Part shown: one piece after another, positions 27,451 to 42,686 of the stretch
Layout of the letters: each line of letters begins with the position of its first letter
Numbering within the stretch: the stretch's first letter is position 1
From: Candidatus Magasanikiibacteriota bacterium
Lineage (GTDB): Bacteria; Patescibacteriota; Patescibacteriia; Magasanikbacterales; GWA2-37-8
Length of the DNA stretch: 64,000 bases
Assembly (NCBI GenBank): GCA_963840935.1
Contig: CAWJAS010000001.1
Span: 384,875 to 448,874, forward strand
Reading direction: 5' to 3'
Position numbers and translations under genes: made by a program
Notes under the pieces: model-generated
What the model was told of the DNA's origin: nothing
The model's input: only the letters and a program-made list of their open reading frames with translations
Databases searched by the model: none

Positions 27451-27455
27451 ATTTT

Positions 27456-28862
27456 TTATTCTTTGTTTGATAATAATTTTTCTAATTTTTCCGCGTGTTT
27501 CTTCATTTTTTCAAAATAAAATGTTTTTTGAAGCGCCATGGCAAATTGACCGGAAAATGTTTGTAAAATTTGACGATCTTCCGGCAAATAAATATCACCT
27601 GATAATTTTTCTCCGATAAAAATTTGCGCCAATGTGTTTGAATCATATTCAGCATTAACAAGCATCGAATCGTCATCAATGGGCAAAATTTCAAAATCAG
27701 CTTCGTTAATAATTGTAATTCTTGAGTTGTGAGAATTTTTTTTGTGTAACAAAATTTTCTCTCTGTTTAAAAATATTTTTATTTCATTAGGTTTAAAAAC
27801 AGTGCAGAGAGTTTCCGCGGTTCTTTTTAATAAATCATGCAAATCCAAACTCAAGTTCATTGCCGAACTTAGCGCGTGGACGGCATCAGTATATGGTACG
27901 CGATCCTTGAAGAATATTTTGGTTGTTTTTTTCTGCAATAATTTTTTTAAGGGAGGGACTCCGATTGCGCCGAATAGCGCGGCGAATAATGAAGCGATGA
28001 AGTGATATTTTATGTCGGTAAAAGTGATTAAACTTGTGATTAAACTAATAAATAATAAATATAATCCGACCACTACTATTATGAGCAACGAGTATATTAA
28101 TGATTTTTGAATTATTATTTTAATATTTAATAATCCATGTTTGAGAATTGAATAGGTGAGTGTAATGCTTAAAAAAACAATGCTCTGGGGCCCGAGAGTG
28201 AAGTAAGATGTATTGCCAAATAATGGTAAAATTGCGTTACAAAACATGGTACAAAGAGACGCGATGCCAAAACCGACAAATATATAACTTATTTGAGCTT
28301 TTTGCGTTATCGTTGCTTTCCGACGCATTTGAATTACCCTGATTAAACTAAATATCCATAATAATACTGTGTAAACAAGCACATAATAATAAAGAGAGCC
28401 GGCGGTGGATTCCGCTACCATATTATATGGGAAATTTATTTCGGATATACTGTATTTTGAATAGGCAAATAAAGATAATATTATTCCCGGAGTATATATT
28501 AAGGCGATTTTAAGCTTGGTGATCGGGTGGCCGGTGAAAACCTCGATAAGATTGGCATACACCGCCATCGCAAAAATTGCTCCGACCAATGATGTGCCGG
28601 CCCAAAAAATAAATAAATTTTCAGTATATGAAATATCGGCAAATACATTTCCCACCAAGCAAATTGTGCTGGTCAAAAAAAGCGCCACCAAGTATCTTGC
28701 CAGCTTAATTTCCCATTTTTTAAAAATAAGAAAAGCCGCAAATCCCAAATTGATTATTACTAGAATTGCGGCTGAATAGGTGAAGGCGAACATAAAAAGT
28801 TTTTGATATATCAACGAAGATAAAACGGGTTGCGATATACAACAATCACCGAGAAATCGCAA
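27456..28862 (-). CDS. Polytopic membrane protein (7-8 TM) with cytoplasmic C-terminal domain; putative sensor
   Basis: Multiple hydrophobic helices over aa 20-300; soluble C-terminal ~170 aa; adjacent to the receiver-like gene. Confidence 0.45.
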   Translation of the reverse strand: MRFLGDCCISQPVLSSLIYQKLFMFAFTYSAAILVIINLGFAAFLIFKKWEIKLARYLVALFLTSTICLVGNVFADISYTENLFIFWAGTSLVGAIFAMAVYANLIEVFTGHPITKLKIALIYTPGIILSLFAYSKYSISEINFPYNMVAESTAGSLYYYVLVYTVLLWIFSLIRVIQMRRKATITQKAQISYIFVGFGIASLCTMFCNAILPLFGNTSYFTLGPQSIVFLSITLTYSILKHGLLNIKIIIQKSLIYSLLIIVVVGLYLLFISLITSLITFTDIKYHFIASLFAALFGAIGVPPLKKLLQKKTTKIFFKDRVPYTDAVHALSSAMNLSLDLHDLLKRTAETLCTVFKPNEIKIFLNREKILLHKKNSHNSRITIINEADFEILPIDDDSMLVNAEYDSNTLAQIFIGEKLSGDIYLPEDRQILQTFSGQFAMALQKTFYFEKMKKHAEKLEKLLSNKE

Positions 28863-29545
28863 CTTTGTGTATCTTTTAAGAAATTGGGGTATATGGTGTA
28901 CATAGAGAGTCCATTCCCCGTATAAAAACCAAGAATAGGATCTGATTTTTCAGGTTCCGGCAGGTCAAGGGCGGGGATGGGAGGGCAGGTAGCATCAAAC
29001 GTTCCGCGGGTTCGTTTTACAGTTTGAGCCGCGTACCAAAGAGCAATTTTAAATTCAGCATCTTTGTCTAACGAGTTCCTATTGATTATACCAAGATTAT
29101 GAATTTTCTCCAAGTAAGCATCAAAACCGGTGATACGCGATGTCCCAATCGCATACGGTTTTCCGCGAGATGTAATGTGCTTACCCAGATTTTTGATCAA
29201 AATTAATCCCACTCCGGGCGATATGGAGTCGAGTGTGATCATGCAAAAAGTGTTGCCATTGGGTTTGTGAGTATTCTTTGAATAACCACAGTCCGTAAGC
29301 TCGTCGTAGGTTTTGCATGAAATTGACTCTCCCGGATTAAAATCAATCAGCTGAAGATAACAGAAAGCCTTTACTTCCTCGTTTTTTTCAGCCACCAAAA
29401 AACCATCGGGATGGGTTTCGAGCCAGCACCTGACATGTTCCTCTCCAAACGGCGTACAGCCGGTGTGGGCAAACAATTGGTTTTCAATACTGACTATACT
29501 TGGAATGTCTTTTTCAGTTCCGTGTCTGATTGTGATACCCGCCAT
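28811..29545 (-). CDS. Hypothetical protein with N-terminal GNAT-like acetyltransferase fold
   Basis: ITIRHGTEKDIPSIVSIENQLF...GFLVAE pattern resembles a GNAT N-terminus; weak. Confidence 0.35.
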   Translation of the reverse strand: MAGITIRHGTEKDIPSIVSIENQLFAHTGCTPFGEEHVRCWLETHPDGFLVAEKNEEVKAFCYLQLIDFNPGESISCKTYDELTDCGYSKNTHKPNGNTFCMITLDSISPGVGLILIKNLGKHITSRGKPYAIGTSRITGFDAYLEKIHNLGIINRNSLDKDAEFKIALWYAAQTVKRTRGTFDATCPPIPALDLPEPEKSDPILGFYTGNGLSMYTIYPNFLKDTQSCDFSVIVVYRNPFYLR

Positions 29546-29672
29546 AGGGTCCTCCTTTTATGAGTTTCAGCTGAGTTATGTTGTGCCTTTTGAGTTTTAA
29601 AAAGAGCAGTCTTGGGATTTATCCACAGGACGGCTTCATTATACCACACTTTTTTTATTTTTTATGCACAGT

Positions 29673-30971
29673 TCAGATTTTGGCAAAAAGCATGGGGATG
29701 CCAAGTCGGCGACGCCCGTTTTCTCCGAGCAGTTTTTCTTTCTGTCGTTCGGATATGTCACCCCTGTCACCCAAGTGCGCGCCGAATTTTTGCGCCTCAA
29801 AACTGGAACCCAAAAAAACCGAGTGTTTGCCGAATCTGCCGGCCAGTTCATCAACACTTTCATAAAGCTTGACCATTTTTTGCATTTTGGCGCCCGAACT
29901 GAAAAGATCGGGTTGAAGTACAGCCGGATTTAAATCAGATAACACAACACCGGTGGCGCGAAAAATTTTACCTTTGCGAATAAGCGAGCCAAAAATATCA
30001 CGCGTTTGAGCGACAATTTCTTGCGGAATATTGGTTGGACGTAACAAGGCCATCTCCGCGCCAAAGTGACGGAAGTCCTGCGTGTGCAAAACAACAGTCG
30101 CCGAGCCGGCGTTCAATTTGTGTCGGCGCGCTTTGATGCAGGCGTTTTCAATATTTTTGGAAAGTTGTGAAAAAATAAAATCAGGATTTTCGGACGGGGG
30201 AGTGAATGTTTTGAATTTTTGAACCGAATAATATGATGACTTTTCTTCCATATGCAAAGGCATAACCGAAGCGCCGTTAAGTTCCTGCCAAATTTCCCAA
30301 AACGGTCGAGCGAGATTGCTCTTTACCCACCACTCATTGGCTCTGGCAAAATCTCCGGCAGTATAAAAATTATGCCGATTCAAAAATGAAGTGGTTGCTT
30401 CACCAATGCCCCAAACTTTTTCTACTGGCCATTTATCCAAAAATTTCCAACGGTCGCGAGTAGTAATAGCAGTCAGTCCGGATGGCTTTTTCCATTTGGA
30501 ACCGACTTTGGCGAGCACCTTGCTTGGCGCGAGCCCCATGGAAAAAGTGAAACCCAATTCACTATCCAAATCTTGTTTAATTTTTTGCGCCAAAGATAAA
30601 TAACCGGAGCCGTGGAGTTTGCCATAGCCGGTTAAGTCGGCAAAGCATTCGTCTATGCCATATTCTTCCACCGCATGCGTGTAGCGACGTACAATGGCGT
30701 ACAAACGGCGGGAGAGCAGGGAATAGGTTTCATAGTCGGACGGCAAAATGACTGCCTCAGGACAAATTCTGCGGATTTGAAATAACGGCATTCCGCGGGT
30801 GACCCCACGCGCCTTGGCTTCATAACTCATCGAAGAGGCAATCCCACGCTCCTTGCCGGTCACCACGGGTCGGCCTTTTAATTCCGGCCGGCGCGACTGT
30901 TCGCAAGAAGCAAAAAAAGCATCGCCGTCGACGTGCATAATCGCTTTTGGATAAGAAGATATGGCGAACAT
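29673..30971 (-). CDS. Y-family translesion DNA polymerase (DinB/UmuC-like)
   Basis: IMHVDGDAFFASCEQ (catalytic DxD...E), SMSYEAKARGV, VWGIG; immediately downstream of lexA on the same strand. Confidence 0.9.
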   Translation of the reverse strand: MFAISSYPKAIMHVDGDAFFASCEQSRRPELKGRPVVTGKERGIASSMSYEAKARGVTRGMPLFQIRRICPEAVILPSDYETYSLLSRRLYAIVRRYTHAVEEYGIDECFADLTGYGKLHGSGYLSLAQKIKQDLDSELGFTFSMGLAPSKVLAKVGSKWKKPSGLTAITTRDRWKFLDKWPVEKVWGIGEATTSFLNRHNFYTAGDFARANEWWVKSNLARPFWEIWQELNGASVMPLHMEEKSSYYSVQKFKTFTPPSENPDFIFSQLSKNIENACIKARRHKLNAGSATVVLHTQDFRHFGAEMALLRPTNIPQEIVAQTRDIFGSLIRKGKIFRATGVVLSDLNPAVLQPDLFSSGAKMQKMVKLYESVDELAGRFGKHSVFLGSSFEAQKFGAHLGDRGDISERQKEKLLGENGRRRLGIPMLFAKI

Positions 30972-30984
30972 AATTTTTTATTTC

Positions 30985-31046
30985 CCTCTCCTTTATAAGG
31001 AGAGGGTTAGGGTGAGGTAAATTTGTTTCCCCCTCTTACAAAGAGG
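30985..31046. repeat. Two adjacent GC-rich perfect hairpins (CCCTCTCCTT-TATA-AGGAGAGGG and CCCCCTCTT-ACA-AAGAGGGGG), each followed by TTAGGG(G)(T)GAG
   Basis: Read directly in the lexA / Y-polymerase intergenic region; related motif GGGAAGAGGGTTGGGGTGAGG recurs at 38243-38262. Confidence 0.6.
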
Positions 31047-31064
31047 GGGTTAGGGGGAGTCGAA

Positions 31065-31637
31065 TTATACTCTATATTTCCTCACCATTCCCACCACCAC
31101 CGCGGCGATATTTAATTCCTCGGTCGGCACAATCGGGCGATAACGGCGGTTGGCCGGAGCGAGCATGATTTTTTGACCGCTTTTGCGAAAATATTTGAGC
31201 GTCCAAGCATGATCAACTTCAGCCACCACCACATCGCCTTCGCGTGGTTGGCGTCCGCGTTCAACAAGCACCAAATCACCCGGCATGATTCCGGCTTCAA
31301 TCATGGAGTCGCCCGTAACTTTCAGCATATAGGTTGCTTCTTTGCGATTGATTAAATATTCTTCCAAATTCATGGTGTCGCATAATTCTTCTTCAGCCGG
31401 AGTGGGGAAGCCGGCGGCGATGTCGCCCAATAATGGCAATTCCAAAAATCTGCGACCCGGGGCAAGCCGTCCGCCGTCATCACGGCGCAAAAAACCTTCG
31501 TCAGCCAGTTTGGCCACGATTTTGTGCACCGCGTTTGTTGATTTGAGCCCGGCTTCGGCCATAAATTCGCGGTAGCTGGGCAATCGGCGATGTCTTTTAT
31601 AAAATTTGGTGAAGGTTGCCAGGTAATTTTTTCCCAT
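31065..31637 (-). CDS. lexA: LexA repressor (S24 peptidase)
   Basis: N-terminal HTH; cleavage-site AG in LGDIAAGFP; S24 catalytic region GDSMIEAGIMPGDLVLVER...K. Confidence 0.9.
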   Translation of the reverse strand: MGKNYLATFTKFYKRHRRLPSYREFMAEAGLKSTNAVHKIVAKLADEGFLRRDDGGRLAPGRRFLELPLLGDIAAGFPTPAEEELCDTMNLEEYLINRKEATYMLKVTGDSMIEAGIMPGDLVLVERGRQPREGDVVVAEVDHAWTLKYFRKSGQKIMLAPANRRYRPIVPTEELNIAAVVVGMVRKYRV

Positions 31638-31696
31638 ATAATTAATAGTTGTGTATAATTAGCATTGCTCACTTCATTCCCATGTGGTAGTATAGT

Positions 31697-31708
31697 GAAC
31701 ATGTGTTC
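31697..31708. promoter_or_regulatory. Cheo-box-type LexA operator GAAC-N4-GTTC within the palindrome GTGAACATGTGTTCAC
   Basis: Located in the divergent intergenic region between lexA (minus) and the Pif1-like helicase gene (plus); matches the Gram-positive-type SOS box consensus. Confidence 0.6.
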
Positions 31709-31745
31709 ACCTTGTCAATGTGGATAACTTTACCCCCAAAAAATT

Positions 31746-33137
31746 ATGTACAAAAAATACGCCAAGAAAAAGAAAAAAGAAAAGGCCTATGTCAGCCGGC
31801 CGACCAAAGAAGACCCCAATCGTTTTGACCATTTAATAATTAACGATGAATGGCAGACGGTTCTTGACGCGCTTGAAAACAGTCCGGAAAATATTTTTAT
31901 CACCGGACGGGCCGGCACCGGCAAATCCACCTTGCTTGATTATTGGCGGGCGCAAACCAAACAAAATATTGTGGTGCTCGCGCCAACAGGCGTAGCGGCG
32001 CTTAATGTTCGCGGTCAAACCATTCATTCATTTTTTGTGTTTCATCCGGGTATTACTCCGGCTGATGTGCGCCGTTATCCCACAAAAAAAGACGGTGAAA
32101 GCATTTACAAAAAAATCGACACCATTGTGATTGACGAAGTTTCCATGGTCAGAGCCGACCTTCTTGATTGCGTGGATAAATTTATGCGCTTGAACGGCCG
32201 AGACAAAGGCAAAGCTTTTGGCGGAGCGCGTCTCGTTGTTTTTGGCGATTTGCACCAGCTTCCGCCCGTTGTCACCGAAGCTGAGCGCGAAGCGTTTTTT
32301 TCACTTTATCGCACGCCGTATTTTTTTTCCGCCAATGTTTTGTGCGACCGTCGTTTAATCCAAATGGATAATGATTTTATCAAATATGAATTAACAGAAA
32401 TTCATCGTCAAAAAGACGCCAATTTTATCAAGCTATTAAATCGCGTGCGCGACAATGAAGCCACGGCCGAAGACCTATCAGAGCTTAATCAAAGACATGA
32501 CCCGGAATTCATATTTGACGAAGACGATTACCGAATTTATCTCACTGCCACCAATTATGTGGCGGCAGAAATAAACAACGCTCGCCTTAATCGTTTGTCC
32601 GAAAAACCGCAAATTTTTAAAGCCGATAAGTACGGGCACTTTGACGACCGAGTTCATCCGACCGACGAAGTTCTGCAACTCAAAGTCGGCGCGCAAGTGA
32701 TGCTTATCAACAACGATTCGGCCAAGCGATGGGTCAATGGCACAATCGGTCGAGTGGCGGAATTAAAAAAAGACACCTACAACTTGCCAATCGTAAAAGT
32801 AAAATTATCGGACGGTGAAGTGGTGGAAGTGGAGCCGTTCACCTGGAAATCGCATCGCTATCATTTTAATGTTTCAGCGCAAAAAGTGGAAGCCGAAGAA
32901 ATCGGTTCGTTCACTCAATTGCCTATCAAATTGGCTTGGGCGGTAACTATTCACAAAGCGCAGGGCAAAACTTTTGACCGTGTGGCTTTGGATATCGGCC
33001 GTGGCGCCTTTGCTTCGGGTCAACTCTATGTGGCGCTTTCGCGCTGTACCTCGCTTGAAGGATTAACCTTGGTCGCTCCGTTAATGCCACGCGACATCAT
33101 TACCGACCCGGTGGTGGTGGAATTTTTGCGCGGATAA
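31746..33137 (+). CDS. Pif1/RecD-family 5'-3' DNA helicase
   Basis: IFITGRAGTGKST Walker A, VVLAPTGVAALNV, VIDEVSM Walker B, AVTIHKAQGKTFDRV C-terminal motif. Confidence 0.85.
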   Translation: MYKKYAKKKKKEKAYVSRPTKEDPNRFDHLIINDEWQTVLDALENSPENIFITGRAGTGKSTLLDYWRAQTKQNIVVLAPTGVAALNVRGQTIHSFFVFHPGITPADVRRYPTKKDGESIYKKIDTIVIDEVSMVRADLLDCVDKFMRLNGRDKGKAFGGARLVVFGDLHQLPPVVTEAEREAFFSLYRTPYFFSANVLCDRRLIQMDNDFIKYELTEIHRQKDANFIKLLNRVRDNEATAEDLSELNQRHDPEFIFDEDDYRIYLTATNYVAAEINNARLNRLSEKPQIFKADKYGHFDDRVHPTDEVLQLKVGAQVMLINNDSAKRWVNGTIGRVAELKKDTYNLPIVKVKLSDGEVVEVEPFTWKSHRYHFNVSAQKVEAEEIGSFTQLPIKLAWAVTIHKAQGKTFDRVALDIGRGAFASGQLYVALSRCTSLEGLTLVAPLMPRDIITDPVVVEFLRG

Positions 33138-33181
33138 ATATTAATAATAAAAACCCTGTTAAATAATTTAACAGGGTAAAC

Positions 33182-33217
33182 AAAAACCCCTCTACCAGTT
33201 GGCGGAGGGGTTTTTTT
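33182..33217. terminator. Bidirectional terminator between the helicase gene and csp
   Basis: CCCCTC-TACCAGTTGGCG-GAGGGG hairpin flanked by an A-run and a T-run. Confidence 0.6.
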
Positions 33218-33227
33218 GAAATCATTA

Positions 33228-33431
33228 TTAGGCGCGAGCGACATTGATGGCGCGCGGACCTTTTTCTGATTGCTCAACCTCAAAGGTTACAGCGTCTCCT
33301 TCACGTAATTCGTTGAAGGTGACACCTTGAAGAGATGAAGAATGAAAGAAAAGATCTTTTCCTTCTTCACCACCTTCAGTGGCGATAAAACCAAACCCTT
33401 TGTCGGTCAATCTTGCGATTTTTCCGTTCAT
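33228..33431 (-). CDS. csp: Cold-shock protein (CspA family)
   Basis: KGFGFI RNP1 motif and VFFHSS RNP2-like motif; 67 aa. Confidence 0.9.
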   Translation of the reverse strand: MNGKIARLTDKGFGFIATEGGEEGKDLFFHSSSLQGVTFNELREGDAVTFEVEQSEKGPRAINVARA

Positions 33432-33575
33432 AGATAGATTTTAGTGAACTAAGCTGCAAAGAAGGCCTCTGCAGAAATTCGACTAATTTCCACGTGGAAG
33501 CTTACTTTTTAGGTGTTTATTATAGCATAAAAATGGGGTTTTGTCAAGGGGGGCAACTAAAATATACCAATATTA

Positions 33576-33603
33576 TTGACATTCCTTCATAAAACTGTAT
33601 AAT
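33576..33603 (+). promoter_or_regulatory. Sigma-70-like promoter for the 33659 gene: TTGACA -N16- TATAAT
   Basis: Perfect consensus hexamers at 33576-33581 and 33598-33603; AGGAG RBS precedes ATG 33659. Confidence 0.5.
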
Positions 33604-33658
33604 CAAACCAAACGTTCATTACAAAAATACGGTAAAACACAGCAGAATAGGAGCAAAT

Positions 33659-34843
33659 ATGACAGGAATTGTAGCAAAGGTTCCGTGGGTAGAATTCGGT
33701 CATAAATTCAGGGAGACAGCGTTCGCTTTGATTAGGTGTGGAAATATTATTAGTTGGCCATTTTTTTCCAAAAAGGCCGGCAAGACCTACTGCGAATATA
33801 TGGCGGGTGAGTATGGCTTGGATATCGCGGATTTTTCCGGTGCCGTGGCCATGCTTGAAGCCTCTGACTTGTCTGATGGTTTGACTGAATTCGACATTTT
33901 GGTAGCGGATCTTTACGCCGGTCTTATCAAGGATGAGGTTCGGCCATCGCCTTTGGAGTTTATGGAAATTCTAGAAAAAACGATGAACCGACTCGAGCTT
34001 GGTACACCCGAACCGGAAGAGGATAAAGAGCCGGAGGGTGACATCGTTTTTAATGCGGTGTACGATGAGCAGTCTTTTTCTATAGCATGTTGCCGTTTTG
34101 TGGCAGACCACAACGGCCAGAAAATTTCTACTGAGCCGTTTTTTTCCCGGAATGCCGGCGATAGGATTATTATGAACATGAGAGATAATCTCAACATGTC
34201 GCGGGGTGCCATGAAGCGGATGGTTCGTGAACTCAACAGCAAGGGTTTGCCCATTCGAACAACCGAAATGGACTTGGCTCTCAGAAATTTTATCGCCTTT
34301 ACTCATCTTTGCAGAAGGTCAAAGCAGGCCAATAGACATTTGGAGACTTTGATTAAGGAAGATATGATGCTCAACCTTTTTGGGCCAAGGGGTTGGGGGA
34401 TTGACCAAGCGCCGGTATTGGATTTGTCTTTTGCTAACGGTAAACAAGGTATGATCGTCGGTCATGTTGACGACGGCGCTCCTGCTGATGTTTCGGAAGA
34501 TATTTGTCTTATGATTGAAAACAGCGTTGTGCTGTACGGCGTGCTCAAATGTGGCAATGTTCAGACTCAACCCTTCTTTTCCAAGCACTGCGCTTGGAAT
34601 TGTCTTACAGCCATGGTTTCTCAGTACGAGTTGAATGAAGACGATGTTGCCAAGACAGAGGTTGCTATTAATATGCTGGATATTTTTCCAGAAGAACCGG
34701 TCAATTATGATCGCGCGGCTTCCAGATTCATTCAGTTGTGTATAAAAACGAATCGGTCCAATCAAGCCTTTAACCACATATACAAACTGATAGAACTAGG
34801 TATCTTTTTAGATATGTTCGGCGACGAAAGCGATCCGTCGTAG
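33659..34843 (+). CDS. Hypothetical protein (394 aa) with internal duplication, no recognisable family; GC-richer than surroundings
   Basis: Repeats CGNIISWPFFSKKAGKTYCEYMAGEYGLD and CGNVQTQPFFSKHCAWNCLTAMVSQYELN; strong promoter, RBS and terminator. Confidence 0.5.
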   Translation: MTGIVAKVPWVEFGHKFRETAFALIRCGNIISWPFFSKKAGKTYCEYMAGEYGLDIADFSGAVAMLEASDLSDGLTEFDILVADLYAGLIKDEVRPSPLEFMEILEKTMNRLELGTPEPEEDKEPEGDIVFNAVYDEQSFSIACCRFVADHNGQKISTEPFFSRNAGDRIIMNMRDNLNMSRGAMKRMVRELNSKGLPIRTTEMDLALRNFIAFTHLCRRSKQANRHLETLIKEDMMLNLFGPRGWGIDQAPVLDLSFANGKQGMIVGHVDDGAPADVSEDICLMIENSVVLYGVLKCGNVQTQPFFSKHCAWNCLTAMVSQYELNEDDVAKTEVAINMLDIFPEEPVNYDRAASRFIQLCIKTNRSNQAFNHIYKLIELGIFLDMFGDESDPS

Positions 34844-34879
34844 CCGTTAAATTAATTCGTTCATTTTTTGAAAGTTTTG

Positions 34880-34909
34880 TGCCTGCGGGGTAACCGCAGG
34901 CGTTTTTTT
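34880..34909 (+). terminator. Rho-independent terminator of the 33659-34843 gene
   Basis: GCCTGCGG-GGTAA-CCGCAGGC followed by TTTTTTTT. Confidence 0.65.
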
Positions 34910-34943
34910 TAAAAAACCCCCACAACTTTTTAAAGCAGTGGGG
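34910..34943 (-). terminator. Terminator for the minus-strand gene 35014-35223
   Basis: CCCCCAC...GTGGGGG hairpin with a T-run on the minus strand (A-run 34910-34915 on plus). Confidence 0.55.
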
Positions 34944-35013
34944 GATTGTTTGCCCTTTGCGGGGGCAAAAATTGTCGAGCAAAATGATTTGCTGAATGAA
35001 CGGAAGGGGCGAA

Positions 35014-35223
35014 CTAGAACTCCATGATCCTGTCGTTCGGGCAGTGGATGCGGAAGTGCGCCGGTTCGGGGCAGGTGATTTTCCGATAACGCAGGAATTC
35101 CTTGTGCCGTTCCAAAAATTCCTTTTTGGCTTCGGCCAGGCTTTCGGCCTTGAGCGCACCGCTCATTCCACAAGCGTGGCAGTTGTAAAGGTAGTAACCG
35201 CTATATTCATTTTTGCTTTCCAT
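35014..35223 (-). CDS. Small Cys-rich (CxxC...C/H...C zinc-ribbon-like) protein, copy A
   Basis: 69 aa; CHAC..., CPEPAHFRIHC; paralog of 35370-35588; both end in EF and share 3' UTR CCCGCAAAG(G/A)GCAAACA plus terminator. Confidence 0.5.
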   Translation of the reverse strand: MESKNEYSGYYLYNCHACGMSGALKAESLAEAKKEFLERHKEFLRYRKITCPEPAHFRIHCPNDRIMEF

Positions 35224-35369
35224 TGCGCGAACCTCCTTTCAAATGAATATTTTTAACCTAGCATATTTTTTGTGTTTTGTAAAGCATTGGCGGATGAATG
35301 AGGAAAACGGCATAAAAGAAAAACCCCGCTTGTTTACGGGGTTTGTTTGCTCTTTGCGGGCAAGAAAGG

Positions 35370-35588
35370 TCAGAACTCGGTCGATGTTCCGTCAGGACTT
35401 TTGCAACGGTAGTGCGTAGCATCGCAGTGCGGGGCCTTGTGCACCATGTTGAAGTCGTCATGCAGGCGGAAGAACTTCACCTTGGCGGTATCAATATCCG
35501 AAGCATTATCAACGGTAACTCGCAGTCCGCATCCAATGCAAAAGAAAAAATACGAACCAATCTCGGCCGATTCATTCTCCATCGCCAT
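35370..35588 (-). CDS. Small Cys-rich zinc-ribbon-like protein, copy B
   Basis: 72 aa; CIGC..., HCDATHYRC; alignable to copy A (C.xCG...AK..F..H..F...C....H.RC). Confidence 0.5.
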   Translation of the reverse strand: MAMENESAEIGSYFFFCIGCGLRVTVDNASDIDTAKVKFFRLHDDFNMVHKAPHCDATHYRCKSPDGTSTEF

Positions 35589-35610
35589 TCTCCTTGTAAA
35601 ATGAACGTGT

Positions 35611-36096
35611 TTAAAGAGCGCGCCTTTTCATTTCTTCTTTGGCGCTGTTTAGCTTCTTATTGTACGATTCAAATTCCTTGGCCAAGATAATGTTCGCCCC
35701 TATCCAAATAATGACAGCAACCACGCAAGCCTGGATACCGCTCATTATTTCTTGGGTTACAAAATCATAAACCACAAAAGTAGTGAACATAGTAAAACAC
35801 AGCATCGCGCCGGCAATCATTCCCGTTGTCAGTCTATCAAGCGTAAACTTGTACGCTCCATCGCGATATTTACTTCTTGAATAAAAAGCCCGCAATAATC
35901 CGACAAACATACAAATGCAAAATAAAAAAATATAAGATGTACCAGAAAATGGTGGAGTGGTGTCAGCCGACTGTTGAAATATTCTATCAAGGATGGTTCT
36001 GGTTATGAAAATTGTAGGCAAAATAGTCAGCATCATAGTAATTTCTTCCAACAGAAAGATTTCCCAAGCCAACCGGCCGAGTTTTTTATTATCCAT
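35611..36096 (-). CDS. Small polytopic membrane protein (about 4 TM)
   Basis: ORF plus hydrophobicity; last gene of the minus-strand trio. Confidence 0.45.
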   Translation of the reverse strand: MDNKKLGRLAWEIFLLEEITMMLTILPTIFITRTILDRIFQQSADTTPPFSGTSYIFLFCICMFVGLLRAFYSRSKYRDGAYKFTLDRLTTGMIAGAMLCFTMFTTFVVYDFVTQEIMSGIQACVVAVIIWIGANIILAKEFESYNKKLNSAKEEMKRRAL

Positions 36097-36266
36097 TTTG
36101 GGCCCCTTTTCCTTTTTTTAAAGGAATTTGAAATGTAAAAGTGCAAAAACACATAAGCAAATTAGCAATTATTAAGGCTTTTGTCAATAGAGCATCTTTT
36201 GACTTTTTGGGTTCAAAAGAGTATAATTAACACAAGTTTTCATTATAAATAAGCTAAAAAAGGCCT

Positions 36267-37208
36267 ATGGAAAGACCAAGAGAGTTTGTGCCACTCGACC
36301 GCCTAAAACCGCGCCAATCACCGGAAAAAAGAAAATCTCCGGAATTTTTTGCCAACCAACTTTTGGGAATGATGAAAAAAATTTCCGAACAAGTGAATAA
36401 AGAAGTTGAGAAAAAATACGGCTTGAATAATTTTTTGAATTCCGACGGCTCACTCAACATGAACGGCTATGCCGAGGGCCCACACACAGCCAAACAAGTC
36501 AAAGAAGATAAAGAATGGGTGCGCGAAAGGGAAGTGGAATTCAGTCGAGCCAAAGTCCCGCAAGTGCAATTATTTTACCGCGAGAAATTCGGCGACAAAA
36601 CCGAAGAAGCAATTGTGGAGCGTTGGCGACAAGAAAAAGCCAAAAACAAAAACGGATTGATGGAAATGGCGGTCACCGGATTGTTCCACAAAATTTTGAA
36701 AGATGATTTTTTGGTGGTGCGCGCTTCGGCCTATGATGATTACAACAAAAATGGCGGAGTGGACAATATTATTGTGAACAAAAGCACCGGCGAGGCGATT
36801 TGCGCTTTTGACGAAGTGCATGAAGGCGGAGCCGGCGAGCGCACGGGCGAGAAGATTAAAAAAATTAAAGAAGTGGCGGGTCGGGGCGGAGCCAGAGTGC
36901 GCTATGGTATCAAATTGGAAAACAACAAGCTCAAACGCGCCGAAATGACCACATTGCCGGTTTTCTATTTGGGATTGAAAAGCGCGGAGCTGGAAGAATT
37001 GCTCGCGAATATGAATTGCGACCCGGACAGCAAAGTGACAAACGCGGAATACCAGGTCTTTGCCAAATTGACGGCATCGCTCAAAGAACAAAAACAAATT
37101 TTGGATGGAACCAACGCCACGCCGGCGGTCAGAAACAAGTTGGAAACATTCGAGGGCTTGCTCGCGGAGTTCGAGGAACGGTGCGAGGGTTTTGATATGG
37201 CGGCGTAA
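36267..37208 (+). CDS. Hypothetical protein (313 aa), no recognisable family; GC-richer
   Basis: ORF only; charged, Lys/Glu-rich. Confidence 0.45.
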   Translation: MERPREFVPLDRLKPRQSPEKRKSPEFFANQLLGMMKKISEQVNKEVEKKYGLNNFLNSDGSLNMNGYAEGPHTAKQVKEDKEWVREREVEFSRAKVPQVQLFYREKFGDKTEEAIVERWRQEKAKNKNGLMEMAVTGLFHKILKDDFLVVRASAYDDYNKNGGVDNIIVNKSTGEAICAFDEVHEGGAGERTGEKIKKIKEVAGRGGARVRYGIKLENNKLKRAEMTTLPVFYLGLKSAELEELLANMNCDPDSKVTNAEYQVFAKLTASLKEQKQILDGTNATPAVRNKLETFEGLLAEFEERCEGFDMAA

Positions 37209-37231
37209 GGGGTAGCCATTATTTTTTATCT

Positions 37232-38200
37232 ATGGCCAAAAAAAGAACAAACAAAAATCAAATCGTAATTTATCAATCAAAAAATGGTGGGATTGAAATT
37301 AAAAAAGACATAAATCTGGATACTCTTTGGGCTACTCAGGTGGATATTGGTAAATTATTTGAAAAAGACCAATCGGTAATTTCGCGTCATATCAAGGGTA
37401 TTTTCAAAGATAAAGAAATAGACCAAAAAAGCAATATGCAAAAAATGCATATTGCAAATTCGGATAAACCGGTTGTTTTCTATAGTTTGGACATTATTTT
37501 AGCCGTCGGTTATCGCGCTAATTCAAAACGAGCGATTGAATTTCGCAGATGGGCAACTAAAATTTTGAAAGCGCACATCACCAAGGGCTTCACCATTAAC
37601 CCCAAAGTAATAAAAAACAATTACGCCGAATTTCAAAAAGCGATAGAAAATATTAAACAATTATTACCCGCGAGTTCAAGTGTTGACCGCGAAAGCGTTT
37701 TGGAATTGGTTTCCGCTTTTGCCGACACCTGGCTGTCTCTTGAAGCGTATGATAAAGACGATTTGATCGGCAAGGGCGAAACAAAAAAATCAGTGGACTT
37801 AACAGCCAAACAATTGCATGAAGCGCTTGTTCAATTCAAAAATGAATTGCAAAAGAATAAAACAATATCAAAAATCTTTGCGCTGGAAAAACAAAGTGGT
37901 TCCGTTGATGGCATTGTCGGTAATATCATGCAGTCATTCGGGGGTAAACAATTTTATGCGACCGTGGAAGAAAAAGCGGCTCATCTTTTGTATTTTATGG
38001 TCAAAAATCATCCTTTTACAGACGGCAACAAGCGTTGCGGAGCTTTTGCTTTCGCCTGGTTTTTGAAAAAGGCCGGTTTGCTTGAATCCCGCCAAATCAC
38101 TTCTCCGGCATTAACCGCGTTGACTATTATTGTGGCGGAAAGCGCGCCCAAACAAAAAGAAAAAATTATTCGCCTGATTCTTCAATTGTTGAAAAAATAA
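37232..38200 (+). CDS. RhuM-family N-terminal domain fused to a Fic/Doc (death-on-curing-type) domain
   Basis: N-terminus IVIYQSKNGGIEI...FYSLDIILAVGYRANSKRAIEFRRWATKIL (RhuM-like); C-terminus HPFTDGNKRCG matches the Doc/Fic core motif HxFx(D/N)GNKR. Confidence 0.75.
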   Translation: MAKKRTNKNQIVIYQSKNGGIEIKKDINLDTLWATQVDIGKLFEKDQSVISRHIKGIFKDKEIDQKSNMQKMHIANSDKPVVFYSLDIILAVGYRANSKRAIEFRRWATKILKAHITKGFTINPKVIKNNYAEFQKAIENIKQLLPASSSVDRESVLELVSAFADTWLSLEAYDKDDLIGKGETKKSVDLTAKQLHEALVQFKNELQKNKTISKIFALEKQSGSVDGIVGNIMQSFGGKQFYATVEEKAAHLLYFMVKNHPFTDGNKRCGAFAFAWFLKKAGLLESRQITSPALTALTIIVAESAPKQKEKIIRLILQLLKK

Positions 38201-38207
38201 CCCTCCT

Positions 38208-38262
38208 CTCCTAAACAAGGCGAAGTCCCGCATTCATTGCGGGAAGAGGGTTGGGGTGAGGT
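38208..38262. repeat. GC-rich hairpin element related to 30985-31046 (contains CCCGCATTCATTGCGGG and GGGAAGAGGGTTGGGGTGAGG)
   Basis: Read directly; lies immediately 3' of the Doc-like gene. Confidence 0.5.
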
Positions 38263-38280
38263 CTGGGGGTCAAAAAATTT

Positions 38281-38308
38281 CAACACTTCACCCTAGGGTG
38301 AAGTGTTT
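38281..38308. repeat. 26-28-nt perfect palindrome AACACTTCACCCTAGGGTGAAGTGTT flanked by an A-run and a T-run (bidirectional terminator-like); copy 1 of 2
   Basis: Read directly; a near-identical copy lies at 43479-43508. Confidence 0.65.
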
Positions 38309-38367
38309 GTTTTGGCTTGAATTATTGATGATCTGGGGGTATGATATATTAGATTAAATATTCAGGC

Positions 38368-38997
38368 ATGTCATACATAAAACGAAAAATCGCAAAATAT
38401 GATTTTATTCATAGTATTGTAGTGACCGTTTTAGTAATGGGCGCATTACTTTTTGGCAAATATTTTTTTACTTCTGATTGGCATTCGTTTCTTTATTACA
38501 TTCAGATTTTTATTTTGGCAGTTGGCTCGGTTATTTTGATAGAATTTGTTTTGCGTCTTGTTAATAAAGCCAAAAATTATGAAAAAGGCAAAGAGGGCGA
38601 AGATTATGTTGAAAAAATATTAAAAAATATTTCGAATTTGGAATACACAAGAAATTTTAGAACAAAAAATGGTGATTTGGATTTTTTGGTGAAAAAGAAT
38701 GGAAAATATTATGGTCTAGAAGTAAAAAATTGGTCAGGCAGAATAACTTATTGCGCGGAAGATGATATTATAGAAAAAAATGGATATCCGCAGAATGTTA
38801 TAAAACAAGTAAAAACTGCTTCAAAAAAAGCGCAACAAAAATTGGCAAAAGAAAATCCCGCAATAACATTTGTGCAACCGGTAATAGTTTTTTGCGACCA
38901 TGTGGCATGTGTGGATATGCCGGGTAATATTATCAAATACGATAATATGGAGGTTTATGCGATTGGGTCGAGTCAGATAAATAATTTTTTTAGATAA
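38368..38997 (+). CDS. NERD (nuclease-related domain) protein with N-terminal TM helices
   Basis: GKEGEDYVEKILK...FRTKNGDLDFLVKKNGKYYGLEVKNW fits the NERD PD-(D/E)xK-like core; two N-terminal hydrophobic helices. Confidence 0.7.
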   Translation: MSYIKRKIAKYDFIHSIVVTVLVMGALLFGKYFFTSDWHSFLYYIQIFILAVGSVILIEFVLRLVNKAKNYEKGKEGEDYVEKILKNISNLEYTRNFRTKNGDLDFLVKKNGKYYGLEVKNWSGRITYCAEDDIIEKNGYPQNVIKQVKTASKKAQQKLAKENPAITFVQPVIVFCDHVACVDMPGNIIKYDNMEVYAIGSSQINNFFR

Positions 38998-39001
38998 AAA
39001 T

Positions 39002-42000
39002 ATGACAAATAATTGCGTATCTGAATTTGTAAAATCAGTAATAGAAAAATATAAATCAGGTCAAGCCAAAGAGCATGCTTATCGTCCGGCTTTAGAAAAG
39101 TTGTTCGGCGACATCTCTGGCCTTAATGTGATCAACGACCCCAAACGGAGCGAATACGGTGCGCCGGATTTTGTGTTTATGAAAGGAAAAGTGGCCGCCG
39201 CCTATGCCGAAGCCAAAGATATAGGCGTATCGCTTGGCGAAACAGAAAAAGGTGAACAACTTGCTCGTTATTTTGGCTATTCCAATTTAATTCTCACGGA
39301 TTGTTTAGAGTTTCGTTTTTTTCGCAACGGTCAAAAATACGAAACAGTGAAGATCGCCGAAATAAAGGACGGTGAAATAGTGGCGGACGAAAACAATTTT
39401 TCGCATTTAGAAGATACAATTAAAGAATTTATCAATGAAGCCAAAGAACCGATAAAATCCGGCGCCGTACTCGCCAAAGTCATGGCCGGCAAGGCGCGTC
39501 GCATTCGAGACAACATCAAAAAGTATCTGAACGAAAAAAACGAAGTTAAGAACGCGAGTTTATTGTCAATATACAATGCTATAAAAAATTTGTTACTCAA
39601 TGATTTGGATTATGAAAAATTTGCAGACATGTACGCGCAGACGGTTGTTTATGGTTTGTTTGTCGCTCGTTTTCACGACCAAACACCCGACACTTTCTCT
39701 CGGCAAGAAGCGCGCGATTTAGTGCCGAAATCCAATCCATTTTTACGTAAATTTTTTGACCATATCACCGGCGAGGATTTTGATGAACGCATCGGCTTTA
39801 TTGTTACGGAACTGTGTGAGGAATTCGTGCACGCCGATGTTCGCGCGATAATAAACAATTATTACAAAGTGGAAAAAGACGATAGCCGCGACCCCATTAT
39901 TCATTTCTACGAAGATTTTTTGCAGGAATATGATCCGGCGGAACGCAAGAAAATGGGTGTGTTTTATACGCCATTGCCGGTGGTACGATTTATCGTGCGC
40001 GCAATAGACGAAATTTTAAAAATCGAATTTGGCTTGAGCGGACTTGTCGATGCTATGAAAGAGGACATTGTTAAGGAGTCTCAGGGTAAAAAATACAAAG
40101 ACAAGATCCATAAAGTTCAAATTCTAGATCCAGCCACCGGCACAGGGACATTTTTGAATGAGGTCATTAGGCAAATCAAAGAATCGTTTAAGGGCCAGGA
40201 GGGTCGTTGGCAGAGTTATATCAAAGAGGACTTAATCCCGCGGCTTTATGGTTTTGAATTAATGATGGCGCCGTACACTATCGCGCATTTAAAAATCTCT
40301 TCTTTTTTGAAAGAGAACGGTGTTCATATCGGCGACGAACGGATCGGTCTGTATCTCACAAATTCTCTTGAAAAAGGCGACAAAGAACACGACACCCTTT
40401 TTGATTTTGGTTTGGCCAAAGCAATTTCTGATAAATCCAGAAAAGCTAACATTATTAAAGTTAAGGTGCCGATAATGGTAGTTTTAGGAAATCCGCCGTA
40501 TTCTGGTGAGTCTAGTAATAATTTTGAGAGTGCGAATAGATTAGTAGACAAATATAAATTTGAGCCAGGAGGCTTACTTAAATTAAAAGAAAAAAATCCA
40601 AAATGGTTAAATGATGATTATGTTAAGTTTATTGCCTTTTCAGAAAATTTAATAGATAAAAACGGTGAAGGCGTTTTAGGGTTTATTACTAATCATAGTT
40701 ATCTGGACAATACAACCTTTAGAGGAATGCGTTGGGAACTTGCACAGACTTTTGATGAAATTCATATAGTAGATCTTCACGGAAATGTTAAGAAAAAAGA
40801 AAAGCACCCAGATGGAAGTGTAGACGAAAATATTTTCGGTATACAGCAGGGTGTAGCTATTATAATTGCTGTGAAAAAGAAAAATAAAGGCGCTAAAAAG
40901 GATGCCAAGGTTTTCGTCTCTGATTTGTACGGTACGAAAAAGGTTAAATTTAATGCATTGAATAATGACGAAATAAAATATACAGAAATTAAATTAGATC
41001 AGCATCAGTACTATTTTGTAAACAAAAATTTTCAAGGAAAAGATGAATACGATAAGGGGTTTTTTGTAAATGATTTGTTTATTGTTTCTAATGTTGGCAT
41101 TGTCACTTCGGCTGATAGTATTTTGGTGGCACCAACTAAAGAGGAATTACTCAAACAATTATATAGCGCTAAAGAGGAAAATAGCGCTAAGAAAACAATT
41201 CAAAAGTTGAAAAATGAATCTATCGAAGAAAGAAAAATGCAAAAAGTAACTTATAGGCCATTTGATAATCAGTATGTTTATTATGAACCAAATGTTATTG
41301 AACGTGCCCGGTATAAAGTGATGAAAAATTTTATAGCCAAAGATAATGTTGGTCTAATATTTATGAGAGGTGGTATAGAGGTAAAATCCTCACCAATTTT
41401 CCTTTCTAAATATATTAGCAAATCCAGGAGCTGGTCGCGTCCAGGAATGCAAGGTGTCAAATCATTAGCACCACTTTATTTATATATGGAAGATGGATCA
41501 AAAATTCCAAATTTCAATAAAGAGATCGTAAAGCAAATAGAAAAAATTATTGGGCAAGCGACTCCCGAAAACATATTTGATTATATATACGCGATTTTGA
41601 ACAGTCCGAGTTATGGTGAAAAATATAAAGAGTTTTTGAAAATAGATTTTCCGCGCGTGCCGTACCCGAAAGATGAAAAACAATTTTTTGATTTAGCAAA
41701 ATTGGGCGAGGAATTGCGCCATTTGCATTTGTTTGAGAGTCCAAAAATAAATAATTTTATCACGACCTATTCAGAACCCGGCGATAATTTGGTTGAAAAG
41801 GTTATTTATAATGAAGAAAATGTGTTTATTAACAAAGCACAATTTTTTGGCGATGTTCCTAAAATCGCCTGGGAATTTTACATCGGTGGCTATCAACCTG
41901 CCCAAAAATGGCTCAAAGATCGCAAAGGTCGCAATTTATCAAACTCCGATATTGAACATTATCAAAAAATTATCGTGGCGCTTGTTGAGACAGGTAGAAT

Positions 42001-42034
42001 AATGAAAGAAATTGATAAAATTAAATATGAATAA
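39002..42034 (+). CDS. Type IIG restriction-modification enzyme (fused PD-ExK endonuclease + N6-adenine methyltransferase + specificity domain), MmeI/Eco57I-like
   Basis: N-terminal APDFVF...EAKD (PD-ExK); FYTP motif I; VLGNPPYSG motif IV (NPPY); 1010 aa single polypeptide. Confidence 0.85.
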   Translation: MTNNCVSEFVKSVIEKYKSGQAKEHAYRPALEKLFGDISGLNVINDPKRSEYGAPDFVFMKGKVAAAYAEAKDIGVSLGETEKGEQLARYFGYSNLILTDCLEFRFFRNGQKYETVKIAEIKDGEIVADENNFSHLEDTIKEFINEAKEPIKSGAVLAKVMAGKARRIRDNIKKYLNEKNEVKNASLLSIYNAIKNLLLNDLDYEKFADMYAQTVVYGLFVARFHDQTPDTFSRQEARDLVPKSNPFLRKFFDHITGEDFDERIGFIVTELCEEFVHADVRAIINNYYKVEKDDSRDPIIHFYEDFLQEYDPAERKKMGVFYTPLPVVRFIVRAIDEILKIEFGLSGLVDAMKEDIVKESQGKKYKDKIHKVQILDPATGTGTFLNEVIRQIKESFKGQEGRWQSYIKEDLIPRLYGFELMMAPYTIAHLKISSFLKENGVHIGDERIGLYLTNSLEKGDKEHDTLFDFGLAKAISDKSRKANIIKVKVPIMVVLGNPPYSGESSNNFESANRLVDKYKFEPGGLLKLKEKNPKWLNDDYVKFIAFSENLIDKNGEGVLGFITNHSYLDNTTFRGMRWELAQTFDEIHIVDLHGNVKKKEKHPDGSVDENIFGIQQGVAIIIAVKKKNKGAKKDAKVFVSDLYGTKKVKFNALNNDEIKYTEIKLDQHQYYFVNKNFQGKDEYDKGFFVNDLFIVSNVGIVTSADSILVAPTKEELLKQLYSAKEENSAKKTIQKLKNESIEERKMQKVTYRPFDNQYVYYEPNVIERARYKVMKNFIAKDNVGLIFMRGGIEVKSSPIFLSKYISKSRSWSRPGMQGVKSLAPLYLYMEDGSKIPNFNKEIVKQIEKIIGQATPENIFDYIYAILNSPSYGEKYKEFLKIDFPRVPYPKDEKQFFDLAKLGEELRHLHLFESPKINNFITTYSEPGDNLVEKVIYNEENVFINKAQFFGDVPKIAWEFYIGGYQPAQKWLKDRKGRNLSNSDIEHYQKIIVALVETGRIMKEIDKIKYE

Positions 42035-42287
42035 ACATGAAAAAATATATCCGACACAAGGATATTCCGATAAAGAATTAATTACTCAGGTTGGTGATTA
42101 TGCGAATCAGGTAGTTGGTGATCCGAATAAAAAAACAGAAATACTTATGCAACATTTTGCAAAGGCGAATGTCGGAGTCGCGGAGTTGCAAAGACGCTAC
42201 ACTAAAAGAGCTTTATATATTGCCTTTTTTGCTTTGTTGCTAAGTGTCGCATCCATTATACTGTCTTTATTTGATAAATTTTTTTAA
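42012..42287 (+). CDS. Small protein with C-terminal TM helix
   Basis: ORF only; overlaps the R-M gene end by 23 nt. Confidence 0.3.
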   Translation: MIKLNMNKHEKIYPTQGYSDKELITQVGDYANQVVGDPNKKTEILMQHFAKANVGVAELQRRYTKRALYIAFFALLLSVASIILSLFDKFF

Positions 42288-42299
42288 AATATTAATTTT

Positions 42300-42653
42300 A
42301 TGCCTCTCACCCTCGTCATCCTATTCGCCATCATCATCATCCTCGCCGGATTTAAAATCTATACCCTTAAGCGCGAGGTGCTTGCCTTGAGCAGAGAGCT
42401 TGAAGATGAAAAAAAGGAATTTGCCGAAGTTGCCGTGTACAACGAAAGGCAAAAGGAAATCAAAAATCAGAACAAGGCAAAAGTGATGGCTTTGTTTGAA
42501 CACCAAAAAAAGATTGCCAACAATGATGTGCAAAAAGAATTGGGCATTTCGAGCGCCACCGCCTTCCGCTATTTGGAGGAATTGGAGAAGGAAGGTAAAT
42601 TAAAGCAGAATAATAAATTTGGGAGGTTTGTTTATTATACGAAAGCAAGTTAA
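42300..42653 (+). CDS. N-terminal TM plus C-terminal winged-helix DNA-binding protein
   Basis: Hydrophobic N-terminus; KKIANNDVQKELGISSATAFRYLEELEKEGKL is an HTH. Confidence 0.5.
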   Translation: MPLTLVILFAIIIILAGFKIYTLKREVLALSRELEDEKKEFAEVAVYNERQKEIKNQNKAKVMALFEHQKKIANNDVQKELGISSATAFRYLEELEKEGKLKQNNKFGRFVYYTKAS

Positions 42654-42686
42654 TTGAAATATTGCAATATTATAAAAATATGAATT

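Follow-up and report, generated by a model that had tools for sequence, protein, structure and literature searches.

Five uncharacterized genes at the edge of the SOS locus of a Magasanikbacteria genome, next to a variable defence hot spot: a probable mosaic of separate histories

The SOS core of Patescibacteria reportedly comprises lexA, with a box of the GAAC-N4-GTTC type, and a Y-family polymerase. Other described systems comparable with the locus reported here are defence islands and hot spots, the tandem arrays of orphan immunity genes that are said to occur in polymorphic-toxin loci, prokaryotic zinc-finger micro-proteins (HVO_2753 family, NCBIfam NF041909) and the PD-(D/E)xK enzymes. 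The locus lies in a 64,000-nucleotide stretch of DNA (the window; GenBank assembly GCA_963840935.1, contig CAWJAS010000001.1, positions 384,875 to 448,874) from a Magasanikbacteria (Patescibacteria) genome of roughly 0.77 Mb, and it holds five genes, referred to as A (33659–34843, plus strand, 394 residues), B1 (35014–35223, minus strand, 69 residues), B2 (35370–35588, minus strand, 72 residues), M (35611–36096, minus strand, 161 residues) and E (36267–37208, plus strand, 313 residues). A sequence-only reading had described them as a block rich in guanine and cytosine (GC), lying inside an island of defence genes, and had proposed a horizontally acquired toxin/immunity or defence cassette. The comparison with related genomes points instead to what is probably a mosaic, located where a conserved SOS locus meets a variable defence hot spot, in which E is old, M and the B genes are clade-specific and A is recent.

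All five predicted open reading frames (ORFs) are confirmed, as is the claim that they belong to no known family. Searches of A, B1, B2, M and E against Pfam, NCBIfam, PHROGs and PADLOC returned only noise, and no toxin or antitoxin domain was matched above noise in Pfam, NCBIfam or PHROGs; the best PADLOC-DB v2 score among the five proteins had an E-value of 0.038 (PDC-S32, 11.6 bits). PDB sequence searches with single sequences and profiles of A, B and E found no match, and an Rfam scan found none within 33.4–37.2 kb.

Four of the five genes (B1, B2, M and E) are inherited and conserved in the clade. The relatives compared include, from exact-protein look-ups, a JGI metagenome contig (L001; E 86% identical), Magasanikbacteria GCA_026396515.1 (L002; E 73% identical) and L004 (E 57% identical), as well as positions 1–9242 of a Logan SRR23086379 contig (L008), and L011 and L015, which were added by a GTDB scan that gave 43 species-representative loci in total. 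Gene orders were derived from hidden Markov model (HMM) and phmmer scans of all loci; the M gene of L002 was missed by phmmer at 1e-5 and was added separately. The order in the window is h244–dinB–lexA–pif1–csp–A–B–B–M–E, where h244 denotes a gene for a 244-residue unknown protein. The corresponding orders are h244–dinB–lexA–pif1–csp–B–B–B–M–E–M′ in L001, h244–[REC A REC A]–dinB–lexA–pif1–csp–B–M–E in L002, h244–A–dinB–lexA–pif1–csp–B–E in L011, dinB–lexA–pif1–csp–E…A in L015 and pif1–csp–E in L012.

According to blastn, the window is collinear with L001 over 25038–33550; the alignment resumes over B1–B2 (34956–35534) and M–E (35632–37203) and is then lost until the NERD gene, the aligned segments being 77–89% identical in nucleotide sequence. 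Positions 33551–34955 of the window (1405 nt) are extra with respect to L001, where the corresponding site measures 48 nt, and the interval from csp to B or E holds no A gene in L001, L002, L011 or L015. B, M and E are collinear with the window in both L001 and L002, as are B and E in L011. The five genes therefore do not look like one acquired unit, since B, M and E occupy the same site in relatives and only the A segment (33551–34955) is absent from it. The single horizontally acquired cassette dissolves into three separate histories: E is found across Patescibacteria, B and M are syntenic within the clade and A is specific to the strain.

The rise in GC content on which the proposal of foreign origin had leaned is real, but its limits are 28811–37208 and not 33.4–37.2 kb, and M is not GC-rich (0.39). 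The stretch from A to E is the right-hand end of this conserved 8.4 kb block, which has a GC content of 0.448, against 0.385 in the remaining window, and contains h244, dinB, lexA, pif1, cspA and the five genes. A domain scan identifies its other members as the 244-residue unknown protein, a Y-family polymerase (IMS/IMS_C), LexA (S24 and LexA DNA-binding domain), a PIF1-type helicase and CspA. Measured against the distribution of gene GC in the window, the five genes have z-scores from −0.33 to +1.88, none exceeding two standard deviations, and native genes of the window are equally high (MreB, 0.455; ORFs at 47.9–49.2 kb, 0.52–0.55). The orthologous blocks of L001, L002 and L011 have a GC content of 0.44–0.50 between flanks of 0.37–0.42; that of L015 shows no rise (0.436 versus flanks of 0.44–0.45). 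The same gene order and raised GC content in three sister Magasanikbacteria genomes indicate that the block is old and inherited, and because the rise predates the split of these genomes (synonymous divergence, dS, 0.5–0.9) it cannot mark a recent import. The windowed GC content consequently does not point to a recent foreign origin, as its elevation is common to the orthologous blocks in three of four relatives.

The putative LexA box GAACATGTGTTC (31697–31708), situated in the divergent promoter region of lexA and pif1, marks the locus as the SOS core. It is the sole exact GAAC-N4-GTTC in the window, forms a perfect palindrome (GTGAACATGTGTTCAC) beside the lexA −10 region and may also control the divergent PIF1 helicase gene. 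The sequence TATAGTGAAC-N4-GTTCACCTTG is found upstream of lexA in L001, L002, L011 and L015, with CCTGT replacing CCTTG in L007 and L008, and the form TATAGTGAAC-N4-GTTCACC is kept upstream of lexA in every relative (L001, L002, L007, L008, L011 and L015). The five genes thus resemble the Patescibacteria SOS core in being physically part of a conserved lexA–dinB–pif1–cspA block with a perfect palindromic LexA box, but differ from it in that none of the five carries such a box. In a scan of the window the promoters of A, B, M and E all proved to lack a LexA box, the one-mismatch matches near the five genes being ribosome-binding sites (RBSs) or parts of coding sequences, and LexA control of A, B, M and E was rejected on this ground. 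Between the lexA stop and the dinB start (30975–31060) there are two similar GC hairpins, each followed by TTAGGGKGAG. An 88%-identical, 86 nt copy of this hairpin element is present elsewhere in L002 (4440–4521, downstream of dinB), and this change of position hints at a short palindromic element that is able to relocate.

To the right of E, window positions 37204–48300 form a variable defence hot spot, the content of which differs in every relative. Its defence genes in the window are RhuM-Fic/PDC-S23 (37232–38200, matching PADLOC PDC-S23 at 2e-100), NERD, a Type ISP restriction–modification (R-M) protein of 1010 residues, DUF3800, DUF2779 and a UvrD/Zn-ribbon helicase. Relatives carry MmeI, a PLD-SNF2 helicase, Eco57I, HNH, RadC/NYN or Type I R-M in the corresponding position (compared regions: L001 10943–20942, L002 10922–20921 and L004 6988–12987). 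Since the DNA to the right of E differs from genome to genome, the five genes lie on the conserved flank of the hot spot and not inside it. The earlier placement inside a defence island is correct insofar as a variable island starts immediately downstream of E, but the left side consists of the SOS locus and housekeeping genes. The region to the right of E is like known defence islands and hot spots in being variable and in carrying R-M, NERD, Fic and RadC/NYN genes; unlike their typical contents, the five genes are outside the variable segment, with B, M and E on the conserved flank. An Rfam DUF3800-IX RNA (43324–43393, minus strand; 46.3 bits, above the gathering score) is located directly downstream of the DUF3800 gene (42687–43301).

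No integrase, tRNA or repeat border was found at the GC-richer block, which also contains no recombinase domain. Four tRNA genes (Thr-GGT, Thr-TGT, Tyr and Trp) are clustered at 25934–26826, 2 kb to the left of the block; as the cluster is collinear with L001, it does not mark the border of an insertion.

A is the only recent event and the only strain-specific insertion among the five genes. Its module (33551–34955, plus strand) lies between the cspA promoter and the 3′ end of B1 and consists of a promoter, gene A and convergent terminators. The promoter, RBS and terminator predicted from sequence are all borne out: TTGACA-16-TATAAT (33576–33603, plus strand) agrees with the sigma-70 consensus at 12 of 12 positions, AGGAG (33649–33653, plus strand) is 5 nt before the ATG and the intrinsic terminator (34879–34911, plus strand) has a 10 bp stem with seven GC pairs and a T8 run (−21.9 kcal/mol, z about −3.5). 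Over the promoter and leader, A and its homolog in L007 share 79% identity, compared with 61% (nucleotide) and 36% (amino acid) over the coding sequences. A leader motif, CCAAACGTTCATTACA (33608–33623), follows directly after the −10 element. A and the L007 gene have it in common; it occurs nowhere else in the window and does not correspond to a LexA box. The search for repeats that flank A, direct or inverted, was negative, as was that for a target-site duplication or terminal repeats.

The internal repeat noticed in A is genuine, but comprises three units (residues 1–115, 127–243 and 293–394) and not two. Units 1 and 3 match by BLASTP (E-value 2e-7), and units 1 and 2 have a 39 nt DNA repeat in common. 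An alignment of 15 units from nine proteins defines a PFFSK domain of about 120 residues, in which the core, s-x-P-F-F-S-K-x-x-G, precedes a conserved L-P and an Asp. The protein is acidic (isoelectric point, pI, 4.8; 59 Asp and Glu residues). In an AlphaFold2 model, the predicted local distance difference test score (pLDDT) is about 80 for units 1 and 2 and below 50 for the linker (residues 244–292), which is predicted to be disordered; a fold search with this model gave no match.

A appeared as a singleton in a word-indexed homology search. An exhaustive HMMER scan of 1.8 billion representatives yielded four real homologs of 254–267 residues with two units each (E-values 2e-39 to 1e-8), together with a fifth match that is spurious. 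Identity between family members is 21–38%. One homolog (P0072) covers residues 1–245 of A and two others (P0073 and P0074) cover residues 278–393; with homologs that cover separate halves and a disordered segment between them, A has the look of two genes, once adjacent in tandem, that have been joined. IMG/VR viral contigs yielded no relatives of either A or E; in tblastn searches, A had no match among phage or plasmid records and E none among phage records, and pattern scans for A in GTDB genomes and JGI metagenomes were likewise negative.

The genomic contexts of the homologs were taken from exact-protein look-ups. Three of them form a tandem array in L008, directly divergent from lexA and accompanied by two B genes, and in L007 the closest homolog is next to the promoter of lexA and the LexA box and is followed by another family member; the tandem arrays of both loci include overlapping genes. 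Profile searches of the loci added single-unit members in L002 (two), L011 and L015, those of L002 (2083–4287) each being divergently paired with a REC-like gene (153 and 156 residues, weak Response_reg). Every PFFSK member found lies in the h244…E locus, within about 8 kb of lexA and in four different slots, and A is absent from L001 and L012, though lexA and/or pif1 is retained there. The neighbours vary by genome (csp/B1, lexA, a 221-residue Zn-ribbon-like protein, REC-like genes and dinB), and no toxin or nuclease partner was found beside the family members. In L008, a 221-residue CxxC-rich protein shares the promoter type of the three tandem PFFSK genes after lexA; this locus, the most expanded accessory locus, also holds proteins of 294, 291 and 232 residues that have no Pfam match. 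A 192-residue gene of the window (26872–27450), downstream of a HisKA_7TM gene (27456–28862), is homologous to the REC-like genes of L002.

Because the GC content of A (0.452) equals that of the block, its module most likely arose from local duplication and recombination within the lineage, combined with fusion, and not from foreign import. A would be the product of a fusion between tandem neighbours from the PFFSK-domain family, which is confined to this clade, and the self-contained promoter–gene–terminator module would have come to lie with the cspA promoter on one side and the B1 terminator on the other. The encoded repeat protein, acidic and presumably cytoplasmic, may work by binding proteins or other macromolecules, and its expression would be driven by its own strong promoter and not by LexA. 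The family is similar to orphan immunity arrays in that its members are in tandem, diverge rapidly and are sometimes overlapping or fused, and in that no signal peptide is apparent in their sequences when read by eye, without a formal test. It is dissimilar in that there is no toxin gene or domain nearby and no Imm or PADLOC match, and in that its location is tied to the SOS locus.

The paralogy of the tandem Cys-rich genes B1 and B2 holds (27% identity, BLASTP E-value 1e-8), and so does the conservation of their 3′ untranslated regions (UTRs), which share a 23 nt stretch with 91% identity (34941–34963 and 35338–35360) that folds as a small hairpin directly upstream of an intrinsic terminator. 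The 3′ UTR of B1 (34911–35013, minus strand) contains the small hairpin at 34949–34969 and then the terminator at 34917–34944 with a U-run; its fold (−32.9 kcal/mol, z −3.4) includes the 23 nt repeat, D3 (34941–34963). In the 3′ UTR of B2 (35300–35369, minus strand) the small-hairpin sequence (35338–35360) is followed by a terminator at 35321–35344. B1 is preceded by the RBS GGAGG (35232–35236, minus strand) and by a promoter region at about 35255–35283.

Nine B sequences were read (B1 and B2 of the window, three from L001, one each from L002 and L011 and two from L008). All nine have C-x2-C, a His about 21 residues further on and a Cys another 10–12 residues beyond, so that four putative metal ligands in two sub-sites are conserved throughout; the C-terminal EF is kept in divergent orthologs. 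B1 is 97% identical in amino-acid sequence to its L001 ortholog at a dS of 0.56, and its ratio of nonsynonymous to synonymous substitution (dN/dS) is 0.027, compared with 0.028 for LexA. The corresponding ratios are 0.225 for B2 and 0.41 for the fast-evolving M. A set of 5.8 billion proteins contains six clusters of the B family, all from this clade, in addition to which there are two more divergent copies in L008. B was found in five clade genomes, with one copy in L002 and L011, two in the window and L008 and three in L001, and is absent from L012 and L015. The HMM matches of L002, L011 and L008 fall between 4e-11 and 6e-31, the second L008 copy being weaker (2e-5). The JGI annotation of L001 calls a 186-residue ORF (8221–8781, plus strand) antisense to the B1 and B2 orthologs; the dN/dS values and the family conservation indicate that the minus-strand B frames, and not this ORF, are coding.

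The first B copy is always directly downstream of, and on the same strand as, a gene for a membrane or secreted protein. This gene is M in the window (22 nt gap), L002 (3 nt) and L001, a 298-residue protein with a single transmembrane (TM) segment, overlapping B, in L011 and a 291-residue signal-peptide protein in L008. Further B copies are separate promoter–RBS–ORF–hairpin–terminator units of about 395 nt. The assignment of four TM segments to M is supported by hydropathy (residues 13–32, 49–74, 91–112 and 116–143). Its homologs are M of L001 (47% identity), a second L001 protein, M2 (27%), and M of L002 (24%, linked solely via M2), and the adjacency of M and B is kept in L001 and L002. M and B2 look like a clade-specific operon in which B2 is probably co-transcribed with M. 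The founding B copy would have been co-transcribed downstream of a membrane-protein gene, here M, and tandem duplication of the 395 nt unit would then have given the one to three copies per genome. The toxin/immunity pairing suggested earlier finds no counterpart in this arrangement, as A has no conserved partner and B follows M, a 298-residue TM protein or a 291-residue secreted protein.

The B proteins presumably bind zinc, given their conserved Cys and His residues, and may be small cytoplasmic zinc-ribbon-like partners or regulators of membrane proteins. They resemble the zinc-finger micro-proteins in size (about 70 residues), in being cytoplasmic, in combining a C-x2-C knuckle with two distal ligands, in their strong constraint and in being transcribed on their own. 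Unlike these, B has one CCHC set instead of two C(P)xCG pairs, is confined to one clade, is tandemly amplified and adjoins membrane-protein genes, and its NCBIfam match is noise (E-value 0.039, 13.8 bits versus a cut-off of 80).

E has a promoter of its own (TTGACT-17-TATAAT, 36199–36227, plus strand; 11 of 12 consensus positions), divergent from that of M. Its homologs fall into 70 clusters, all from Patescibacteria, and it is present in 43 species-representative Patescibacteria genomes in unrelated contexts; the carriers are labelled Magasanik-, Kaiser-, Falkow-, Komeili- and Liptonbacteria, Paceibacterota and Minisyncoccia. The gene is single-copy with a dN/dS of 0.09. Outside the clade no recurrent neighbour was found across 45 loci, except for a loose link to PIF1 in L024 and L027. 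Thirteen columns of the family alignment are invariant and mostly acidic or basic (Glu133, Arg152, Asp157, Asp158, Asp166, Asp182, Val184, Lys196, Lys199, Gly208, Pro231, Phe233 and Gln275), Glu183 and His185 are conserved in at least 90% of sequences, and the invariant Lys196 and Lys199 lie in the helix that follows this motif. A scan of 63 homologs against Pfam gave no recurrent family.

An AlphaFold2 model of E from a 63-sequence alignment is confident (pLDDT 89.4, predicted template-modelling score 0.85). A long, all-helical N-terminal half (residues 25–144) leads into a core with the order helix 128–144, strand 148–152, strand 167–171, strand 177–186, helix 191–205 and strand 209–218. Restriction endonucleases turn up repeatedly among the weak top fold matches in the PDB and BFVD (BstEII, EcoT38I, PfoI, 3ijm, BpuSI, Mrr and DUF2726), which makes a restriction-endonuclease-like core possible. 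The predicted order helix–strand–strand–strand–helix–strand resembles that of PD-(D/E)xK enzymes, as does the placement of an invariant Glu (Glu133) in the first helix, of Asp166 at the beginning of strand 2 and of an acidic pair (Asp182/Glu183) in strand 3. The motif Asp166…Asp182-Glu183-Val-His185, which is without the canonical Lys, the lack of a significant match and the all-helical N-terminal half, which has no counterpart in these enzymes, set E apart from them, and it is at most a candidate member of the superfamily. E would be an old Patescibacteria-wide protein under purifying selection and outside any cassette, its acidic invariant cluster being carried by the predicted core, and it may be a metal-dependent phosphoesterase or nuclease-type housekeeping enzyme. 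Assignment as a kinase, with Asp166-x4-Asn171…Asp182 as the equivalent of a catalytic loop, was considered and rejected because residue 171 varies (Asn or Asp) and the helical N-terminal half has no β-rich N-lobe.

Several of these observations could also be read in other ways. The absence of a known family for any of the five genes, their GC content above the window mean and the defence island directly downstream (PDC-S23 RhuM-Fic, NERD and Type ISP R-M) would fit the horizontal acquisition, in one piece, of a novel toxin/immunity or anti-phage cassette. Synteny has already largely refuted this explanation, which is now very improbable: the distributions of E, of B and M and of A are discordant, the GC rise extends over dinB–lexA–pif1–csp and is common to three relatives, the genes are spread over both strands, with separate promoters for A, B1, M and E and separate terminators for A, B1 and B2, and the block has no integrase, tRNA, repeat border or PADLOC match. 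It is scarcely credible that B1 and B2 are not genes at all and that antisense ORFs or a non-coding RNA are the real features. The JGI antisense ORF, the structured UTRs and the fact that the exact B2 sequence is missing from the protein collection could be taken in that sense, but the low dN/dS of B1 at a dS of 0.56, the C-x2-C…H…C pattern and C-terminal EF kept in divergent orthologs, the HMM matches in L002, L011 and L008, the RBS, promoter and terminator of each ORF and the lack of an Rfam match argue against it.

A on its own might be an accessory conflict gene from an arms-race family (orphan immunity, anti-defence or defence, by protein binding or DNA mimicry). As a strain-specific indel from a tiny, fast-diverging family with tandem arrays of overlapping genes in L008 and L007, as an acidic protein with repeated domains, and in its position 2.4 kb (measured from its stop) from the start of the variable hot spot, A is what this explanation would lead one to expect. 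It is nevertheless unlikely, since no family member has a toxin or nuclease partner beside it, no PADLOC or PHROG match and no phage or plasmid homologs were found, members occur to the left of, inside and to the right of the SOS core but not in the defence island, and in L002 they pair with REC-like genes. Alternatively, the A and B families could be clade-specific SOS-associated factors, either modulators of LexA, DinB or PIF1 or damage-induced effectors of the cell cycle or envelope. All A-family genes are close to lexA, and directly divergent beside the LexA box in L007 and L008; B is in the same locus in five clade genomes and the constraint on B1 equals that on LexA. Such a role appears improbable, given that the A, B, M and E promoters have no LexA box, that the genomes are all close relatives in which proximity may reflect local duplication, and that, despite the presence of lexA and/or pif1, L001 and L012 lack A and L012 and L015 lack B.

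Some points weigh against a mosaic of an old E, clade-specific M and B genes and a recent A. The 8.4 kb block is distinct in composition from its flanks in three of four lineages, and may have been acquired as a whole long ago. All genomes that carry A-family genes belong to one clade, so that their constant proximity to lexA may be phylogenetic inertia, and the position of A at the edge of a defence hot spot, with relatives in tandem, fast-diverging arrays (L008), fits immunity or defence. Gene anatomy, phyletic distribution, selective constraint and the insertion of A are shown; the biochemical roles of all five proteins are inferred. The model of A has an overall pLDDT of 66, which is low confidence. 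For E, the best Foldseek E-values were 0.07 against the PDB (BstEII) and 0.17 against BFVD, neither being significant, and its HMM scored no better than 0.6 against PDB sequences; comparison with the NERD (PD-(D/E)xK) profile by hhalign was negative (probability 0.2%), and the canonical Lys of (D/E)xK is replaced (Glu183-Val-His185).

Elsewhere in the window, positions 6502–11881 (minus strand) encode a TrwB/TraG-like type IV coupling protein of 846 residues beside proteins of 164 and 776 residues without a Pfam match; these genes may be part of a DNA-transfer or uptake apparatus.

It is decidedly doubtful that the A and B families form an unrecognized Magasanikbacteria-specific damage- or phage-responsive system at lexA–dinB–pif1, with E separately representing a new enzyme fold. 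In such a system, acidic repeat proteins and zinc mini-proteins would act on membrane proteins or on the SOS machinery; if so, an arms race still under way would account for the variable copy numbers and the fused genes. The fold of E, for its part, may be one that all members of a large branch of Patescibacteria have in common. The evidence so far points to no new biological principle or new kind of system.

The reading favoured here, a mosaic at the edge of the SOS core, illustrates that GC-rich unknown genes beside defence genes need not be an imported defence cassette: the conserved flank is the GC-rich part and the variable part is made up of its AT-rich neighbours. Three uncharacterized families, E, B and the PFFSK domain, are delimited by coordinates, motifs and phyletic range. 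About half of the genes in ultra-small Patescibacteria symbionts are unknown, and it is typical of such genomes that these families are undescribed. The confinement of the PFFSK domain to an SOS-adjacent locus, its leader motif, the link between B and membrane-protein genes and the confident but unmatched fold of E are worth keeping in view, and families as well delimited as these are reasonable targets for structural and functional work.

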